DNA from: Candidatus Poribacteria bacterium
Lineage (GTDB): Bacteria > Poribacteria > WGA-4E > PCPOR2b
Length of the DNA stretch: 64,000 nucleotides
Assembly (NCBI GenBank): GCA_965218095.1
Contig: OZ244587.1
Location: forward strand, 1,376,001 to 1,440,000
Direction of reading: 5' to 3'
How positions within the stretch are numbered: the stretch's first letter is position 1; each line of letters begins with the position of its first letter. The notes below the pieces were generated by a model, which did not search any database, was not told where the DNA came from, and was given only the letters and a program-made list of their open reading frames with translations. The translations under genes and the position numbers were made by a program. This document shows, piece after piece, positions 1-62,238 of this stretch.

Positions 1-370
1 TATCCGCAGCGGGAGAGGCATTACACAGATTACCGCCAACACTTGCCCTACCTTGAATTCCGGTACCACCAATAATCTTAGCAGCATCAATCAGTCCAGG
101 GTATGCGGCAGAGATTGCATCGTCCGCATAGATTTTATAACAGGGAACAGCCGCACCGAGGCTTAAACCGGTGTCAGGGGAATATGAAAGCACGTTGGTT
201 TCAGAGAGGTCTTTGATGTCTACCATCCGTTCCAACTGCCGCCGGTTCTCCCGAACCATAACGATGAGATCTGTTCCGCCGGCCAAGGGCTTTGCTTGAT
301 CGCCTTTTTCGGCGAGCAAGGAGGCCGCTTCAGCTACGGTTTTTGCGGGAACATATTCAAACGCTCGCAA
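1..370 (-). CDS. Xanthine/CO dehydrogenase-family FAD-binding subunit (CoxM/XdhB-like), runs off the window edge
   Basis: Not in the ORF track. TTG start after AAGGAG; translates LRAFEYVPAKTVAEAASLL..PLAGGTDL..IGGTGIQGRASVGGNLCNASPAAD, which contains the FAD-binding motifs. Confidence 0.9.
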   Translation of the reverse strand, partial: MRAFEYVPAKTVAEAASLLAEKGDQAKPLAGGTDLIVMVRENRRQLERMVDIKDLSETNVLSYSPDTGLSLGAAVPCYKIYADDAISAAYPGLIDAAKIIGGTGIQGRASVGGNLCNASPAAD

Positions 371-580
371 AGCATCAATCTCCTTTCAAGATGAGAGGGG
401 TTACTCGCCAAGCTTCACAGCCTTACATGAACATCTCCAAAAACTTGGCAAATGTTTATTACACACTTTATCTTAATCGAAAGCATCGGAAATGTCAACC
501 GAAAAGATCTCTACCCCGCTCGGGGAAACTTTTAATCCAGGGCGAGGCATTAAAAAAAGGGAATTATATCGAATAGTGCC

Positions 581-657
581 ATTTATTTGGCATTTAGAAT
601 GCCAAATAAATTTGACACTATAGCAGTAGTTTGGTATCATCGCACCAAATGTGTCAA
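581..657 (+). promoter_or_regulatory. Inward-facing sigma70 promoter with adjacent palindromes in the element left end
   Basis: TTGACA(612-617)-17bp-TATCAT(635-640); perfect 14-3-14 palindrome ATTTATTTGGCATT-TAG-AATGCCAAATAAAT (581-611); TTGACAC..GTGTCAA inverted pair. Confidence 0.75.
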
Positions 658-677
658 TGTACATAGGGAGGTCTAAA

Positions 678-770
678 ATGGATGCGAAAATTAGAGCAGA
701 ACTTGATGAAATTCGTGAGATGTTAGCCGAAGCAGCTAGACTTTTTCTACGAAAATTGGGTACAATATAA
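678..770 (+). CDS. Short, probably truncated coiled-coil-like ORF (MDAKIRAELDEIREMLAEAARLFLRKLGTI)
   Basis: GGAGG RBS; the first 20 codons recur in the second left-end copy at 3686. Confidence 0.45.
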   Translation: MDAKIRAELDEIREMLAEAARLFLRKLGTI

Positions 771-803
771 GCACCAAACCCTTATCTACACGGAGGATCT
801 ACG

Positions 804-1049
804 ATGGTTACTTGGATTCCAAGTCTGGTGACGAGTGGTATCGTGGTTATTGTTACAGTTGGATCAGTAATTATTTCTATGCGGATTCAACTTGCTAAAT
901 TAGAATCTAAGTTTGATACTAAGTTTGAATCTGTAGAGAAAGACATTAACAGATTAGAAGCAAAGATTGATGGTATCAACCAGACATTAGGTGCTAAGAT
1001 TGATAACGTTAATCAACACATTGACCGTCATCTTGAGAATCATTCCTAA
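804..1049 (+). CDS. Small single-TM + coiled-coil protein (DUF1640/XhlA-like architecture)
   Basis: GGAGG RBS, N-terminal hydrophobic helix, heptads LESKFDTKFESVEKDINRLEAKID, C-terminal HLENHS. Confidence 0.7.
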   Translation: MVTWIPSLVTSGIVVIVTVGSVIISMRIQLAKLESKFDTKFESVEKDINRLEAKIDGINQTLGAKIDNVNQHIDRHLENHS

Positions 1050-1066
1050 CCTACGGAGGATTTACC

Positions 1067-1246
1067 ATGACTAGCCCTCAAATTCTGATGGCGTTGATTC
1101 TGCTCATCTTGAATGGCGTAATCACTGTCGTAGCCGTTCTTACCTTCACCAGAGGACTGGCTACTAAAGATGATATTAACCGGATAGAAAGGAAACTCGA
1201 AGCACTTAACCAGAATTTCATTGACCATCTGAAAGGACACGCTTAA
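1067..1246 (+). CDS. Small single-TM + coiled-coil protein, 59 aa (below ORF-track cutoff)
   Basis: MTSPQILMALILLILNGVITVVAVLTFTRGLATKDDINRIERKLEALNQNFIDHLKGHA; GGAGG RBS; LATKDD resembles DUF1640-type motif. Confidence 0.7.
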   Translation: MTSPQILMALILLILNGVITVVAVLTFTRGLATKDDINRIERKLEALNQNFIDHLKGHA

Positions 1247-1263
1247 CCTACGGAGGATCTATC

Positions 1264-2016
1264 ATGAAATGCACCATGTCGGTTTCGATCCCGATCTTAT
1301 CGGGGCTCGTTTTGACAATTTTGTTTGTTTTCCCTGTTCTTACATTCTCGGAACTTACCGAGAAAGACTTAGAGAAAATCCGAAAAATCGTTCAATCTGA
1401 AGTGAATACCATCAAGCAAGACATAACAGAAGTTGAACTCCGATTAATTGAGAAGATACGTGAATCGGAGAATCGGCTTCAAACACAATTTAATCAATCA
1501 CTGGATAACCGAACCAACAGTATCATGATTATCTTTGCTGTCGTTTCTATGGGGTTCTTCCTTCTGTTCGGTTGCATTCTACTGGTCGGTGCATTACGAA
1601 ACCGTCAGCCTAACAAGAAACTCATCATCCTTATGGTGGTTAGCCTCGCCGGTGTAATGCTTTGCCGCATCCCTTCGCTCAATGCCCAAAAGGATAGGTT
1701 TGGTGAGGACATTGTTTGTAGAAGTTTAACTGTTATTGATGACGAAGGCAAAAATGCGATTGTCTTAGAAAGTAATGAAGATGAGAAATCAAATCAGATT
1801 ATCATTTATGAACCACATCAAAAACGTGCAAATGTTGCTGGGATAAATAAGGAGCCTGAAAACTGGAAAAAAGAGGCAATTAGATTAGAGGCTAAAAAAG
1901 ATTATTCTTGGTTTTCTGTCCAAGATAGGGAAGATCCTAGCTACGCGGCGTTTTGGATTTTTAGTGATAAAGACTACAATTATTCATCACGGCGGATACG
2001 TGGAAAAGCAGAGTAG
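1264..2016 (+). CDS. Hypothetical membrane protein: signal/TM, coiled coil, TM, second signal-like segment, beta-rich domain (possible fusion of two cassettes)
   Basis: 250-aa ORF with RBS; three hydrophobic segments; EDIVCRSLTVIDDEGKNAIVL region. Confidence 0.65.
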   Translation: MKCTMSVSIPILSGLVLTILFVFPVLTFSELTEKDLEKIRKIVQSEVNTIKQDITEVELRLIEKIRESENRLQTQFNQSLDNRTNSIMIIFAVVSMGFFLLFGCILLVGALRNRQPNKKLIILMVVSLAGVMLCRIPSLNAQKDRFGEDIVCRSLTVIDDEGKNAIVLESNEDEKSNQIIIYEPHQKRANVAGINKEPENWKKEAIRLEAKKDYSWFSVQDREDPSYAAFWIFSDKDYNYSSRRIRGKAE

Positions 2017-2077
2017 CAGATTGGTAAGGAGAATCACTTAAAAGCCTGAAAGACTAACCTATAGGAGGTTTTGAAAA

Positions 2078-2257
2078 ATGCCCTCATCTGTTTATCATGC
2101 AGTCGTTAGGCAAAAAGGCAACTGGTGGATTGGTTGGATTCAGGAAATTCCGGGTGTAAATTGTCAAGAACAGACTCGCGAAGAACTAATAGATACACTT
2201 GAAACTGCACCGAAAGAGTACGCACTTATAAGATTTAGACTTGAAATTAAGGCTTGA
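2078..2257 (+). CDS. HicB-family antitoxin, orphan and probably C-terminally truncated
   Basis: MPSSVYHAVVRQKGNWWIGWIQEIPGVNCQEQTREELIDTL matches the HicB N-terminal pattern; AGGAGG RBS; no hicA adjacent. Confidence 0.75.
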   Translation: MPSSVYHAVVRQKGNWWIGWIQEIPGVNCQEQTREELIDTLETAPKEYALIRFRLEIKA

Positions 2258-2315
2258 ACTTTGTTTGAAAATCTGATAAAATATAGTCTCAAATCCGCAT
2301 AAATAAAGGAGTTGA

Positions 2316-2648
2316 GTGGCTATGATTCAGATAAGTCGTCAAGCAAAGCTGGTTTGGAAAGATGCCGTTGAAAATGGCATCAAGTTTAAGATTATTGAGC
2401 AGGATGCCAAGTTAGAACCGAATTATGATGGCATGAAAGTTGGTGATGCCTCAACACTGTGTGTAGTCGAAGATATTAAATCTCGATATAAGGGACAAAT
2501 TAACCGATATGAAGGTGAGATAACACGATTAGTTATCTTCCGAACTCGGCTTGAAGAATTGTTGTCTATGCTCAGTGAATATCCGGTTGATGAGACAAAT
2601 CGAGACTTGATTAAGAGATGTATCGAGAAATTAGATGGGAAACTGTGA
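2316..2648 (+). CDS. Hypothetical protein, 110 aa
   Basis: AAGGAG RBS, GTG start; upstream TTGAAC-17-TAAAAT promoter-like sequence (~2254-2282). Confidence 0.6.
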   Translation: MAMIQISRQAKLVWKDAVENGIKFKIIEQDAKLEPNYDGMKVGDASTLCVVEDIKSRYKGQINRYEGEITRLVIFRTRLEELLSMLSEYPVDETNRDLIKRCIEKLDGKL

Positions 2649-2832
2649 TAAAGAGTTAGCCCAACCCATTGGCTACGTGGCTTCCAAATCGGTTTCGATC
2701 CCGATCAGATCGGGGCAGGAAAACAATTCCCAATGATAGAAATCGTTGAAACCCTCTTAGTCCTGATAACTGGTTTAATTTTGGCTTCACTCGGTTGGGG
2801 CTGTCGGGACTTAATTGTGAAAGGAGGCTATT

Positions 2833-3078
2833 ATGACTTGGATGACCCTTGGCCAAATCGGAGCGATTATTGTATCACCGGCGGTCATGCTTTATATCGC
2901 CACGATGATTAACAAACGAATTGATGATTTGAAATCGAAGATGGATTCAGACCATGCGAACCTTGCGAAAATGGTAGAGGGAGTTCGTCAAGAGGTAAAA
3001 GATGTTCGCAACCATTTTGACAAGAGGCTTGATACTCCGAGCACCATTTTATCCTTTAAGGAGAGCAATTTCCAATGA
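2833..3078 (+). CDS. Small single-TM + coiled-coil protein, possibly 3'-truncated
   Basis: AAGGAGG RBS; TM followed by INKRIDDLKSKM..VRQEVKDVRNHFDKRLD heptads. Confidence 0.65.
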   Translation: MTWMTLGQIGAIIVSPAVMLYIATMINKRIDDLKSKMDSDHANLAKMVEGVRQEVKDVRNHFDKRLDTPSTILSFKESNFQ

Positions 3079-3245
3079 AAAAGAAACAGACCCTTCGCAA
3101 ACGTTCTTCCAAAGACAAGATTATCAAATCTATCAAGGACACGCCGGAGAATGTGGCAAGAGCATTGTTCGGTATGAAGTCCACCCGCCAACCTAAATCC
3201 AAATCGCGAAAAAATGGAAGTGCCGAAATCTATGATTATCCGTAA
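3075..3245 (+). CDS. Small basic protein next to the right TIR (56 aa, contains DTPENVARALF)
   Basis: AAGGAG RBS; ATGA overlap with the previous ORF; ends 5 bp before the TIR. Confidence 0.6.
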   Translation: MKKKQTLRKRSSKDKIIKSIKDTPENVARALFGMKSTRQPKSKSRKNGSAEIYDYP

Positions 3246-3284
3246 GTTTCGGCACTATCCGATATAATTCCCTAAAAAAACACC

Positions 3285-3485
3285 TTATCCCCGGCAGATT
3301 ACATTTTGGCCCCCCCCCCCCCCCTTCCGTGATGACTTCGTAAGGGATGTCCAAATCATCCAGAATCTTGAGGTGCGATTTGGCGATTTCGTAAGTCTCG
3401 TCAGCGAAGCGGACGACACGCATTCGTTTCGCCGGCGCGACGAAACCTTCTCCCTCGCAGCGTCTGTAAATCTGATCTTTACCAT
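3285..3485 (-). pseudogene. Frameshifted small hypothetical gene with a G15 tract
   Basis: GGAGG RBS; MVKIRFTDAARE continues in another frame as FVAPAKRMRVVRFADETYEIAKSHLKILDDLDIPYEV; C15 run at 3310-3324. Confidence 0.45.
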
Positions 3486-3567
3486 CTGAGGGTGCCCTCC
3501 ATCCTTAGAGTCTATCCTAATCTTGCCTTTTTCTAAAAAATTTGCCAGCATCTACCGCATATTTTAT

Positions 3568-3744
3568 GGGAATTATATCAAATAGTGCCATTTTTTGGCA
3601 TTTAGAATGCCAAATAAATTTGACACTATGGCAGTAGTTTGGTATCATCGTATCAAATGTGTCAATGTACATAGGGATGTCTAAAATGGGTGCGAAAGTT
3701 AAAGCAGAACTTGATGAAATTCGTGAGATGTTAGCCGAAGCAGC
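3568..3744 (+). mobile_element. Solo second copy of the element left end
   Basis: About 95% identical to 559-736 (TIR, palindrome, promoter, start of mini-ORF); no matching right TIR seen in the window. Confidence 0.85.
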
Positions 3745-4798
3745 AGAGATCTTGGGAAGCTATCGTACGAAATCTCTCAATAACCTCTGCGTGCGAAGCC
3801 GTGCCTGTTGTCCCAATCTTTGTCACCGTAATTGACGCGACGAGGTTTCCGACCTGCGCCGCTTCAACGTAGATGCTCCCATCCCGCCGAGAGGAACCGC
3901 AGAGCGTCGGCACAATGCCGGCCGAAACGCTATCCCCCGCTCCGACTGGATCTGTCTCTTGATCGAGCGGAATTCCCGGCACATGCTCAACCCGCCCATC
4001 GTAGAACACCAGAATTCCATGCTGACCGACAGTTACATAAACCGGCTTTCCTGTACGCTCTGCCAAGAGCCCCCCACACTGTTCTGCTTCCTCAATATCA
4101 ACTTCCTCACCCGTCCAATCCGGATTGACCGCCTGTTTTGCCTCAAATCGGTTTGGTTTGATAATAACGTGATAATACTTTCCCATCCGGCTGCGAGAAT
4201 CGGCAAAAAAGATCTTGTCGGGATATTTCACAGCAAGTCGGCAGATCTCCTCGCGCACCCGATCGGTGATGACCCCCCAATTGTCGTGCGGCATCTGATC
4301 CCCGACGATGACTCCTTCGACCATCGGCACACATTGATGGAGAGATCTGATCGCCATGTCCTCCACCTCAGATCGCATCGCTGATTGGTTTTCAACGTCG
4401 AATCGAGGTCCCTCCGTCTCCACGCCTTCGTAGCCACGATGGATGGGTTTGAGATAGGTCGGCGTAATGCAGTCCGGCGCGGAGATCATAAACTCCGTGA
4501 TGCACCCATTCGCCTCCAAGCAGTCAAGCAGAGTTCTGCCAAACCCATCCTCACCGATCACGCCCAGTGTGTAAACTTCTCCAACCTCTAACGCCCTGAG
4601 ATTGTTTGTCACTGTCCCCGCCGCACCAGGGCTATAGCGTTGACCCATGACAGGATTTGTGTACCAGGGGGTTTCCAGCGATAGAGTCGATTTCGTTTTG
4701 TCAATCAGCCAGTAGGCGTCGAGGTAAAAATCTCCAACAACCAGGATTTTTCGCTCTCTAAATCCCTCCAGAACGGTTTTTAGACACTCTTCGTTCAT
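3731..4798 (-). CDS. PfkB-family carbohydrate kinase (HldE/RfaE kinase-domain-like)
   Basis: ILVVGDFYLD, PGAAGTV, IIKPNRFEA and DPVGAGDS motifs. Confidence 0.9.
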   Translation of the reverse strand: MNEECLKTVLEGFRERKILVVGDFYLDAYWLIDKTKSTLSLETPWYTNPVMGQRYSPGAAGTVTNNLRALEVGEVYTLGVIGEDGFGRTLLDCLEANGCITEFMISAPDCITPTYLKPIHRGYEGVETEGPRFDVENQSAMRSEVEDMAIRSLHQCVPMVEGVIVGDQMPHDNWGVITDRVREEICRLAVKYPDKIFFADSRSRMGKYYHVIIKPNRFEAKQAVNPDWTGEEVDIEEAEQCGGLLAERTGKPVYVTVGQHGILVFYDGRVEHVPGIPLDQETDPVGAGDSVSAGIVPTLCGSSRRDGSIYVEAAQVGNLVASITVTKIGTTGTASHAEVIERFRTIASQDLCCFG

Positions 4799-4984
4799 CG
4801 CATCCCCTCTTTCATTTTACATTTCACGCCTAGTGTACCAAAGATTAACGCCATGATCAAATGAATTCGGATCGGGAGGGAAACCGTTCCCCGATAAGAT
4901 CGGGATGCAAAGGACTTGACCTTGACCCGATCTTGTGGTAAACTCGATTGAACTGATGTCGTATGCTACCCGTCCGTTAGGGTG

Positions 4985-5135
4985 TAAAATCGAAAGTGGG
5001 ATAATCCACTTGCCCCATTCGTTGATGTAAATATCCACACTACTGATGATAAATGGATTAATGTATCTTTTCTGATAGATTTGGGTGCGGACGGAACATA
5101 CTTGCCAAGTGAGTACATGGAAGATCTCGGTATCC
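4985..5135 (+). pseudogene. Retropepsin-like aspartic protease fragment
   Basis: Frame from 4997: WDNPLAPFVDVNI..WINVSFLIDLGADGTYLPSEYMEDLGI, a degenerate D[ST]GA motif; no intact start. Confidence 0.45.
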
Positions 5136-5703
5136 AGTTCAACCGCAGAAGTCTGGAGTTCAGATGGCGCTGTTTCTGCCTGCCCTGCTGCCCTGCGAGC
5201 GGTGGTGGATGGACGCGACAATCATCATGGGCAAGCGCAACCATTTCCGGTTCAGGCTAACCGATGAATTCGGGCTGCGATCACACTACCGTGACCCCGG
5301 CGAATTTGACAGTGAACTTGAGCGACGTTTTGCAACGCAGTTTGAGCAAGTCGAGACAGAGTGGACATTAGAACGTGAGACGGACATCATCAATCTCAAG
5401 GATACGGTGATGATTCCGGATTTCGCGTTCTCGCATCCCGACGGGCGGCAGGCGTTGATGGAGATCGTCGGATTCTGGATGCCGGATTACCTCCAGAAGA
5501 AGCTATGGAAACTGAAACAGGCGGGCATGCCCAACATGATCATCGCTGTGTCGGAGCAGTTGAACTGTTCGGCTGACGATTTTCGGGACATTGCCGGCGA
5601 GGTGCTGTTTTTCAAAACGCGGATTAAGCCGAAAGACGTACTGGAAAAGGTAGAAGGGTGTGCGATTTTGGAAGGGAAGTGTTCGATTGAAGATCAAGGA
5701 TAG
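5136..5703 (+). pseudogene. DUF790 (Bax1-like nuclease) family, C-terminal half only
   Basis: MALFLPALL..FDSELERRF..WTLERE..VMIPDF..MEIVGFW.PDYL.KKL; N-terminal half missing. Confidence 0.75.
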
Positions 5704-6658
5704 TAAAATCGTTGTCATTGGCGGCGCCGGTTTCATCGGTTCGCACATTGTTGAAGCGCTCATCGAAGAAAATGTGGGGCGAATTGTCATTTTCGACAAT
5801 TTCACCAGAGGCAATCACGAAAACATTCGAGATGGCGTCAAGGATGAGCGTGTCGAACCTTACGAAGGCGACATCACGCATACCGACATCCTGGATGACG
5901 CCTTAAAAGGCGCGGATTACGTTTTCCATCTAGCGGCGTTGTGGCTGAGACACTGTTATGATTTTCCACGAGCGGCGTTCGAGGTCAATATCGGCGGCGC
6001 CTTCAACGTCCTAGAAGCATGCGTCAAAAATGGAATCAAGAAACTGATTTATTCCTCGTCCGCTTCTGTCTACGGCGACGCCGTCGAGATTCCAATGACA
6101 GAGAACCATCCGTACAACAACCGAACCTTCTACGGCGCGACGAAGATCGCCGGCGAGCAGATGTGTCGCGCTTTTTATGACCGATATGGCCTGAACTATG
6201 TCGGTTTGCGCTACATGAATGTCTATGGACCCCGTCAGGATTACAAGTCCACATACACGGGTGTGATTATGAAAGTGCTGGACCGGATCGATCAAGACGA
6301 TCCGCCGATTGTTTACGGCGATGGCTCGCAGGCGTACGACTTTGTCCATGTGACCGATGTTGCGAAGGCGAATGTTTGCGCGTTAAAGAGCGATGCAACG
6401 GACGATTTTTACAACGTGGGTCGCGGGGTGAAGACCACAATCAGAGAGTTGGCCGAGTTAATGCTTGACCTGACGCAGTGCGGGCTCGACATCCATTACG
6501 AACCCGCCGGTCTGACTTTCGTGACCCATCGAATCGGCGCGACGGAAAAAGCAGAGCGTGAACTTCGATTCAAAGCCGAAACCGACCTGCAGGAAGGCTT
6601 AATCAGCGTAATTAAATGGCGGAATGCGCAACCGGATACAGGAGTTTATCCCGTATGA
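5687..6658 (+). CDS. NAD-dependent nucleotide-sugar epimerase/dehydratase
   Basis: GGAGFIGSH, SSASVYG, YGATK, LRYMNVYGP; probable TTG start at 5687. Confidence 0.95.
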   Translation: MKIKDSKIVVIGGAGFIGSHIVEALIEENVGRIVIFDNFTRGNHENIRDGVKDERVEPYEGDITHTDILDDALKGADYVFHLAALWLRHCYDFPRAAFEVNIGGAFNVLEACVKNGIKKLIYSSSASVYGDAVEIPMTENHPYNNRTFYGATKIAGEQMCRAFYDRYGLNYVGLRYMNVYGPRQDYKSTYTGVIMKVLDRIDQDDPPIVYGDGSQAYDFVHVTDVAKANVCALKSDATDDFYNVGRGVKTTIRELAELMLDLTQCGLDIHYEPAGLTFVTHRIGATEKAERELRFKAETDLQEGLISVIKWRNAQPDTGVYPV

Positions 6659-61822: not shown

Positions 61823-62194
61823 CTACCTGGGGCGCTTTGCTCCATATTTTGATCTGCCCTGTCTTCGATTTTCAACACCTGCTGTGTCCAATGTGCCCCG
61901 GACAATGTGATATCTGACATTGGGTAAATCTTTGACTCTTCCACCACGCACAAGCACAACAGAGTGCTCTTGAAGATTATGATCTATGCCGGGGATATAG
62001 CAAGTTGCTTCCTGACCATTCGTAAAACGGACACGAGCTACCTTCCGGAGGGCTGAATTCGGCTTCGTGGGTGTTACGGTCCTGACCTGTAAACAGATGC
62101 CTCGCCGTTGGGGACAATTTTCCAAAACGGGAGATTTACTTTTCTTACGTGGCCTTTTACGAGACTTTCTGACTAATTGACTAATTGTTGGCAT
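61823..62194 (-). CDS. rpsL: 30S ribosomal protein S12 (K43T and G92N relative to consensus)
   Basis: [23 protein letters not shown]. Confidence 0.98.
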
Positions 62195-62238
62195 ATTTAC
62201 CTCGAATAACTAATTGTTGGCATATTTACCTCGAATAA
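62181..62238. repeat. Exact 29-bp tandem duplication of the rpsL RBS and start
   Basis: CTAATTGTTGGCATATTTACCTCGAATAA x2. Confidence 0.95.

Follow-up and report, generated by a model that had tools for sequence, protein, structure and literature searches.

A probable transposase-less IS1595-family derivative with a mosaic interior in a Candidatus Poribacteria genome

The ISNwi1 subgroup of the IS1595 family of insertion sequences (ISs), as catalogued in ISfinder, includes carriers of passenger genes. The family and its transporter ISs were reportedly described by Siguier, Gagnevin and Chandler in 2009, and De Palmenaer et al. 2004 is said to be the paper on MIC231, a mobile insertion cassette (MIC). 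In an excerpt of PMC3129680, transporter ISs are ISs that carry passengers, a term introduced with the IS1595 family in 2009, and MICs are transposase-less IS shells with passenger genes, for example MIC231, which is mobilised by IS231A in Bacillus cereus. Here, these systems are compared with a 2.7-kb element at 559-3272 of a 64,000-nt stretch of DNA from a Candidatus Poribacteria bacterium (the window, C1:1376001-1440000 of the single-contig 6.35-Mb genome G000; plain positions are window coordinates). With a probability of about 85%, the element is a non-autonomous derivative of the IS1595 family, i.e. a MIC or transporter IS without a transposase, that persists as a fixed relic with a mosaic interior.

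The element is bounded by a pair of 22-bp terminal inverted repeats (TIRs) at 559-580 (+ strand, GGGAATTATATCGAATAGTGCC, an exact match to the variant seen most often in other genomes) and 3251-3272 (- strand, GGGAATTATATCGGATAGTGCC), which are 21/22 identical with one mismatch and both start GGGAATTAT. Each TIR is abutted by a copy of an exact 8-bp target site duplication (TSD), TAAAAAAA, at 551-558 on the left and 3273-3280 on the right, and the octamer occurs nowhere else within 500-3800. None of 100 shuffles matched the TIR 22-mer. Subterminal palindromes adjoin the TIRs, at 575-609 on the left (TGCCA..TGGCA; GGCATTTAGAATGCC) and as a hairpin at 3219-3256 on the right, with arms AGTGCCGAAA at 3219-3228 and TTTCGGCACT at 3247-3256; a hairpin of the same type adjoins the TIR in related elements. 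The RRTGCC motifs that a first-pass annotation of this DNA had noted at both ends (575 and 598 on the left, 3219 on the right, with complements at 589 and 3251) are the arms of these hairpins. An inward-reading sigma-70-like promoter, TTGACA-17-TATCAT with a TG, lies at 612-640 (+ strand) with a score of 11/12; it is the best-scoring site in 400-3900 and is repeated at 3620-3648 in a second left end. Downstream of it lie nine small open reading frames (ORFs) of 30-250 aa, all on the + strand, where about eight behind a consensus promoter had been annotated.

The TIRs and exact TSD of that annotation were thus recovered as described, and its statement that no transposase is present was borne out by Pfam, NCBIfam and tblastn. 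Scans of all nine ORFs against Pfam and NCBIfam gave no significant match, to a transposase or otherwise, only sub-threshold coiled-coil noise, and tblastn with nine transposases of the cognate clade, which is associated with the same ends in other genomes, reached at best E 0.13 for a transposase remnant in the element. Scans for Rfam families and tRNAs, over 1-5000 and 1-6000, gave no match. Clade-type ends, a TSD and the absence of a transposase together identify the element as a transposase-less derivative.

The identity of the ends is established by their occurrence elsewhere. An exact scan for the 22-mer pattern in one genome per species returned 40 stretches outside the host genome, in which TIR occurrences, counted at 0-2 mismatches, number 51. 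An IS1595-type transposase match lies no more than 3 kb inward of the TIR in 21 of these, and in nine the transposase start is 35-58 nt from the TIR. The ORFs of elements with this 22-mer carry the Pfam domains Zn_ribbon_IS1595 (PF12760) and DDE_Tnp_IS1595 (PF12762), and an exact 8/8, AT-rich TSD flanks 10 of 17 TIR pairs, with one more (L041) after a 1-nt shift. Since same-end elements encode an IS1595 transposase and are flanked by 8-bp duplications, the earlier designation of the ends as IS1595-type holds. The element encodes no transposase of its own, as a member of the IS1595 family would, which places it among the derivatives (as a MIC) and not among the ISs. Complete same-end elements span 1.65-6.1 kb and relatives with a transposase, passengers and the same TIR span 2.2-6.1 kb, their passengers including IS4/5 and IS3 elements nested inside, a SocA/Panacea gene and unknown ORFs. 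In G027, a genome of the same family as the host, the transposase lies 1.8 kb from the element end owing to nested ISs.

At least 577 stretches that encode a transposase of this clade came out of a profile search. The ends recovered among the best 80 of them, which are 54-66% identical to the query, read GGGGATTATAT...AGTGCC, i.e. GGG(A/G)ATTATAT, and the simplest elements in this set are 1.34-1.5 kb. These ends fit the GGnnATTAT start that the first-pass annotation had invoked and that we take, from ISfinder, to mark the ISNwi1 group; the consensus was not found in the literature searched. Clade transposases are mostly 50-65% identical pairwise, while the TIR varies by 0-2 mismatches. Compared with a plasmid collection they show at most 40% identity, and the matches are labelled only 'IS1595 family transposase'. 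Going by record titles, the 22-mer is found in Thioalkalivibrio sp. HK1 and in metagenome-assembled genomes (MAGs) labelled Poribacteria, Binatia, Bryobacterales, Terriglobia, Rhodospirillaceae, Paracoccaceae, Rhodothermales, Dehalococcoidia, Chloroflexota, Gemmatimonadaceae and others, i.e. across many phyla, and the exact end is present in only 8 of 241 million metagenome records.

Carriers of the same kind exist in Thioalkalivibrio sp. HK1 (G029), where the TIR has 18 matches. All eight end pairs examined in that genome lack a transposase, giving at least eight such elements of 0.54-1.65 kb (L084-L089 and L093 among them), and exact 8-bp duplications flank three of the seven pairs checked (L049/L088, L084 and L085; L049 is 1652 bp). 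Each HK1 element holds one Cys-rich secreted-type ORF with a common signal peptide, MKKIAMIAM.FGFVGA.., and a mature part of 114-489 aa. Only degraded transposase fragments were found in HK1, a draft assembly in which an intact copy may be missed. Transposase-less cargo carriers have arisen independently in at least two lineages, the host genome and HK1. The description of the element as non-autonomous holds, and these carriers are its counterparts with the same ends.

Within the host genome, copies of the 22-mer are confined to the two element ends, 3568 and C1:493191; the latter two, with the 40 loci in other genomes, are the further copies of the ends for which a search had been proposed. 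At 3568-3744 (+ strand) a second left end stands alone and truncated; over 178 nt it is 95% identical to 559-736, and its TIR copy lies at 3568-3589. It joins, at 3744, the 3' end of a pfkB kinase gene (3731-4798, - strand) whose last few codons and stop come from element sequence, indicating that a deletion removed the rest of the second element; the same deletion perhaps took the native 3' end of pfkB too. The left end at C1:493191 is also solo, about 95 nt long, and shares the first ~60 nt of the left end; a search of 7 kb revealed neither a right end nor a point at which a host gene resumes, and it is treated as a solo remnant. As judged from sequence, the three left ends (559, 3568 and C1:493191) show past movement of this end type within the lineage. 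The 178-nt left end common to two copies lacks the transposase start seen at 35-58 nt in canonical ends, which favours, without proving, the view that the element moved as a unit that lacks a transposase.

No transposase of the cognate clade is present in the host genome, the best match being that of IS-A (293 aa), which is 33% identical and belongs to an element with ends CGCGCTTATAAGG. Clade transposases scoring above 340 bits are found in 3 of 28 genomes of the same family (G009, G017 and G027). The proposed search for an IS1595 transposase with the same ends thus succeeded in other genomes and failed in the host. IS-A, 2.2 kb long and present in nine near-identical copies (C1:3216657-3218867 and 8 further sites), is a separate IS1595 element; its ends, CGCGCTTATAAGG.., are unrelated to those of the element, it has 8-bp duplications, and it appears to have been active recently. 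Its passenger is a 146-aa membrane/helical protein on the strand opposite to the transposase. IS-B (C1:5095599-5098865) is a 3.3-kb element of the IS-A group with a frameshifted transposase, and its passengers are a 70-aa membrane/helical ORF and a 293-aa homologue of o4, the largest ORF of the element. Since the host genome lacks a cognate transposase, the element is probably immobile now. The first-pass claim of mobilisation in trans therefore stands in part: past movement is shown by the three left ends, but the genome at present has no transposase to match.

From this anatomy and that of the relatives, the following course of events may be proposed. The 22-bp ends would be the sites bound and cleaved by a DDE transposase from the clade with ends GGG(A/G)ATTATAT...AGTGCC, and such a transposase, as the anatomy and the relatives show, inserted the element into an AT-rich intergenic site, duplicating 8 bp. 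The enzyme would have acted in trans, or its gene would later have been lost, and as to which of the two we can only infer. The interior would have been built by nesting and recombination and not from exchangeable cassettes, and all ORFs would be read one way from the inward left-end promoter, their expression being presumed. A fixed relic is the most likely present state, and renewed movement of the element would require the entry of a cognate IS into the cell.

By comparison of its parts with the rest of the genome, the interior is a mosaic in which passenger modules and pieces of leader, both of IS-A/IS-B type, are combined with a truncated HicB-like gene and the orphan-family ORF o6. The 30-aa o1 (678-770) shares its first 23 codons with the solo left end at 3568-3744. 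Directly 5' of o2, a leader-like fragment (promoter/ribosome-binding site (RBS), IS-A type) at 737-803 on the + strand bears a weak resemblance to the IS-A leader (47/78, with a 23/27 block counted by hand from the alignment). The 81-aa o2 (804-1049) combines an N-terminal hydrophobic segment with a charged helical tail, and the 59-aa o3 (1067-1246) has the same architecture and weak similarity to o2. A single N-terminal hydrophobic segment is also present in o7 (59 aa, 2733-2912), of which a 91% DNA copy lies at C1:1360966-1361056, and in o8 (81 aa, 2833-3078), which like o2 and o3 has a charged helical-looking tail. With 250 aa and three hydrophobic segments, o4 (1264-2016) is homologous to the 293-aa IS-B passenger (C1:5097149-5098027; 37% identity, E 3e-36) and has a paralogue at C1:1360053 as well. 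The o4 family comprises 11 proteins without a Pfam domain, the sole named member being labelled Candidatus Poribacteria, and an Atlas search with o4 gave no usable match.

The HicB-like (UPF0150) antitoxin fragment o5 (2078-2257) is cut after about residue 47: its UPF0150 match reaches only E 0.016, and its alignment with a 68-aa paralogue covers residues 1-47 of the latter. No HicA toxin partner is encoded in the element, which lacks the intact HicB and adjacent HicA of a HicAB type II toxin-antitoxin (TA) system; the 'TA-like genes' announced by the first-pass annotation reduce to this one truncated fragment. What interrupts the HicB-like ORF is the nested left end (tip, promoter and RBS) of an IS-A-group IS1595 element at 2219-2321 on the + strand, 75/100 identical to the IS-A left end, and o6 (108 aa, 2322-2648) occupies the exact position at which the transposase would start. 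Neither this nested end nor the second left end at 3568-3744 figured in the earlier annotation. A small conserved family of unknown function includes o6; full HMMER gave 12 representatives of it where a word search returned o6 alone. The AlphaFold2 (AF2) model of o6 is confident (predicted local distance difference test, pLDDT, 81.8), and a PDB comparison at E <= 0.001 gave no match to it. Finally, o9 (3075-3245) is a 56-aa basic ORF that ends at the right hairpin.

Repeats are also part of this interior. A junction, TAACCTACGGAGGAT..ATG, precedes both o3 and o4, and the 33 nt at the start of o4 are duplicated at 2684-2716 (+ strand), where the duplicate contains one copy of a 24-nt palindrome (TTTGAATCCCGATCTTATCGGGG type) that lies at 1283-1306, 2693-2716 and, inverted, 4888-4911. 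This palindrome is genome-wide, with 37 copies at no more than 4 mismatches, its core CCCGAT-N3-5-ATCGGG occurring 99 times versus ~1 expected, and it looks like a dispersed repeat of the host genome resembling repetitive extragenic palindromic (REP) sequences. A partial copy of the cargo, 80% identical and covering the o3 tail, o4 and o7, is located at C1:1359907-1361056, 16 kb upstream of the window; it has no TIRs, appears to lie inside a disrupted gene and contains an o4 variant with a different C-terminal domain. The disrupted gene we take, from its translation read by eye, to be P-loop ATPase-like.

Contigs of four runs from four studies were aligned to window 1-4400. Those of X4 and X7 lead out of the interior, across the right TIR, the TSD and the spacer, and on into the second left end (3036-3744), and since they span the right junction, the insertion is common to those strains. 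Their interiors differ from that of the reference: 968-1085 is skipped, a 118-nt deletion, and 402 other nt stand in place of 1780-2732, the segment with the C-terminus of o4, the fragment of hicB, the nested end and o6. The payload thus changes in place by deletion and segment replacement and not by unit exchange. In respect of the variable payload that had been predicted, cargo does differ between lineages and strains, but through nested insertion, deletion and segment replacement, not through cassette exchange; likewise, the recommended comparison of cargo between end pairs revealed differences between lineages, while the HK1 copies share one gene family.

Several observations weigh against the account proposed above. 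No whole-element copy was found elsewhere, and the element-specific left subterminal sequence is absent from the 28 family genomes, from genome contigs of other species and from metagenome contigs; without a whole copy or a relative's left end, movement as a transposase-less unit is not directly demonstrated. The contigs of the four runs on 1-4400 include no joint across 551-3280 that would represent an empty site, and no left-junction contig is listed for these runs. The contigs of RNA run X10 cover the flanks only, at 90-95% identity, and so do not bear on the putative transcription from the left-end promoter. Furthermore, the putative membership of the element in the ISNwi1 subgroup depends on the presumed end motif. 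The 287-bp right flank has no counterpart in the 28 same-family genomes except one 38-nt match (E 0.005), and the genome collection holds no other genome of the host genus.

An alternative is decay in place, in which a complete transporter IS inserted and its transposase was later deleted or overwritten by IS-A/IS-B-type recombination, so that the element never moved in transposase-less form. This account is possible, if rather doubtful. The interior is visibly rearranged (the nested end, the truncated hicB and the duplicated o4 start), strains from three studies share the insertion with differing interiors, the host genome has no cognate transposase, and in the G027 element nested ISs have already displaced the transposase by 1.8 kb from the end. 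However, the left 178 nt contain no transposase start, which in nine canonical ends comes 35-58 nt from the TIR, and these 178 nt are shared at 95% with the insertion at 3568 and over the first ~60 nt with C1:493191. A left end lacking an adjacent transposase thus seems itself to have been propagated, and HK1 has independent transposase-less carriers with TSDs.

Far less probable is an active gene shuttle, in which integron-like, exchangeable cassettes are mobilised in trans today and units are swapped at defined junctions. The inward promoter at the element end, the junction repeats before o3 and o4 and the variation of cargo among strains and lineages would suit it. Yet no recombinase and no element-specific recombination site were found, the only internal palindrome, that of 24 nt, being genome-wide, and the strain changes (the 118-nt deletion and the replacement of 1780-2732 by 402 nt) are not exchanges of units at the junction repeats. 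The missing cognate transposase speaks against mobilisation today, and the HK1 copies hold one gene family, varying in length. There is next to no likelihood that the inverted repeat and A-rich octamers are coincidental and the ORFs ordinary chromosomal genes. The duplicated octamer is of low complexity, but the shuffles and the identical 22-mers that bound transposase-bearing elements with 8-bp TSDs in many genomes refute a chance origin of the TIRs and TSD. A transposase-less IS1595 derivative that became a fixed relic thus remains the preferred interpretation.

As such a derivative, the element has IS-type TIRs and a TSD around passengers and no transposase, which is what defines a MIC. It shares with MIC231-type MICs the IS ends around passengers, the lack of a transposase, the target duplication and, presumably, the dependence of movement on a cognate transposase supplied in trans. 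The ends of MIC231 are of the IS231/IS4 type, whereas those of the element are of IS1595 type and its interior derives partly from a second IS1595 group; MIC231 is mobilised by IS231A, while the host genome here lacks a cognate transposase and mobilisation in trans is putative. With the IS1595 transporter ISs the element has in common the 8-bp duplication, ends that fit the presumed GGnnATTAT consensus and passengers inside the ends, but unlike them it has lost, or never had, a transposase. Like IS-derived MITEs (miniature inverted-repeat transposable elements), it is non-autonomous, TIR-bounded and TSD-flanked, although MITEs are far smaller and the element, at 2.7 kb with nine ORFs, is coding. 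Integrons resemble it in having an end promoter ahead of co-oriented small genes; however, the element has no integrase, no attI/attC and no unit-wise exchange, and is bounded by DDE-transposon ends and a TSD. No ORF contains a recombinase domain, so the IntI tyrosine recombinase of integrons is missing along with attC cassettes, and the integron-like logic ascribed to the element finds no footing in an integrase or an element-specific attC-like site. Nor can it be called an undescribed system, given that MICs and transporter ISs are already established categories according to the same excerpt (PMC3129680).

Further features of the clade and of the locus were observed. The clade also includes 71-bp mini-elements (L045:7033-7103 and L048:5202-5272), in which two TIRs 27 nt apart form a single long hairpin, without matching duplications. 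A conserved small ORF with the motif ..QP.KAELE.DV.I.DATP.EL..AV.. and no Pfam match lies at the transposase-distal end of elements in L035, L041, L018, L019/L040 and L043 (E3, E4, E7, E8 and E11) and may be an accessory gene of the clade; o9 possibly corresponds to the conserved small right-end ORF of the clade, the match (E 0.012, within a set of 11) being suggestive only. A spacer of 287 bp separates the element from the second left end, and it includes 15 consecutive C residues (3310-3324) that lie inside small - strand ORFs. The X4 contig over 3040-3586 contains 11 gaps, and the C-tract may vary in length or reflect an assembly or homopolymer error. At the far end of the window, 62180-62237 is a perfect tandem duplication of a 29-nt unit.

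The MAG title codes APA_, RHO1_, SB066x_, bin52 and HK1, which we presume to denote sponge-derived material, apply to nearly all records of L011-L050 and L104-L183, the loci with the end or the transposase of the clade. RNA runs labelled 'sponge metagenome' contain small pieces of the window's flanks. A restriction of the clade to a host-associated habitat is a lead, and the literature searches returned no paper tying IS1595 elements to sponge symbionts in such a way; among ISs, the excerpt of PMC11410982 mentions IS66 and IS1380 only.

The element is a new instance of an established class, MICs having been known since MIC231 and the IS1595 paper dating from 2009, and the accepted view of how such elements work is unchanged by these findings. 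A bolder proposal, which we consider unlikely, is that the clade is a vehicle shared across host-associated phyla that repeatedly sheds transposase-less, promoter-bearing shells, forming a community-level expression-cassette system in which the element would still be mobilisable. If so, shells with lineage-specific secreted or membrane proteins, such as the small membrane/helical proteins of the element and the HK1 proteins with their common signal peptide, would move in any cell that contains a cognate transposase. The data show that one 22-bp end has stayed nearly unchanged across many phyla despite transposase identities of mostly 50-65%, and that passenger modules with their promoter/RBS leaders pass between two IS1595 groups inside one genome. 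The conservation of the end across phyla and the repeated formation of cargo shells may merit a study of their own.

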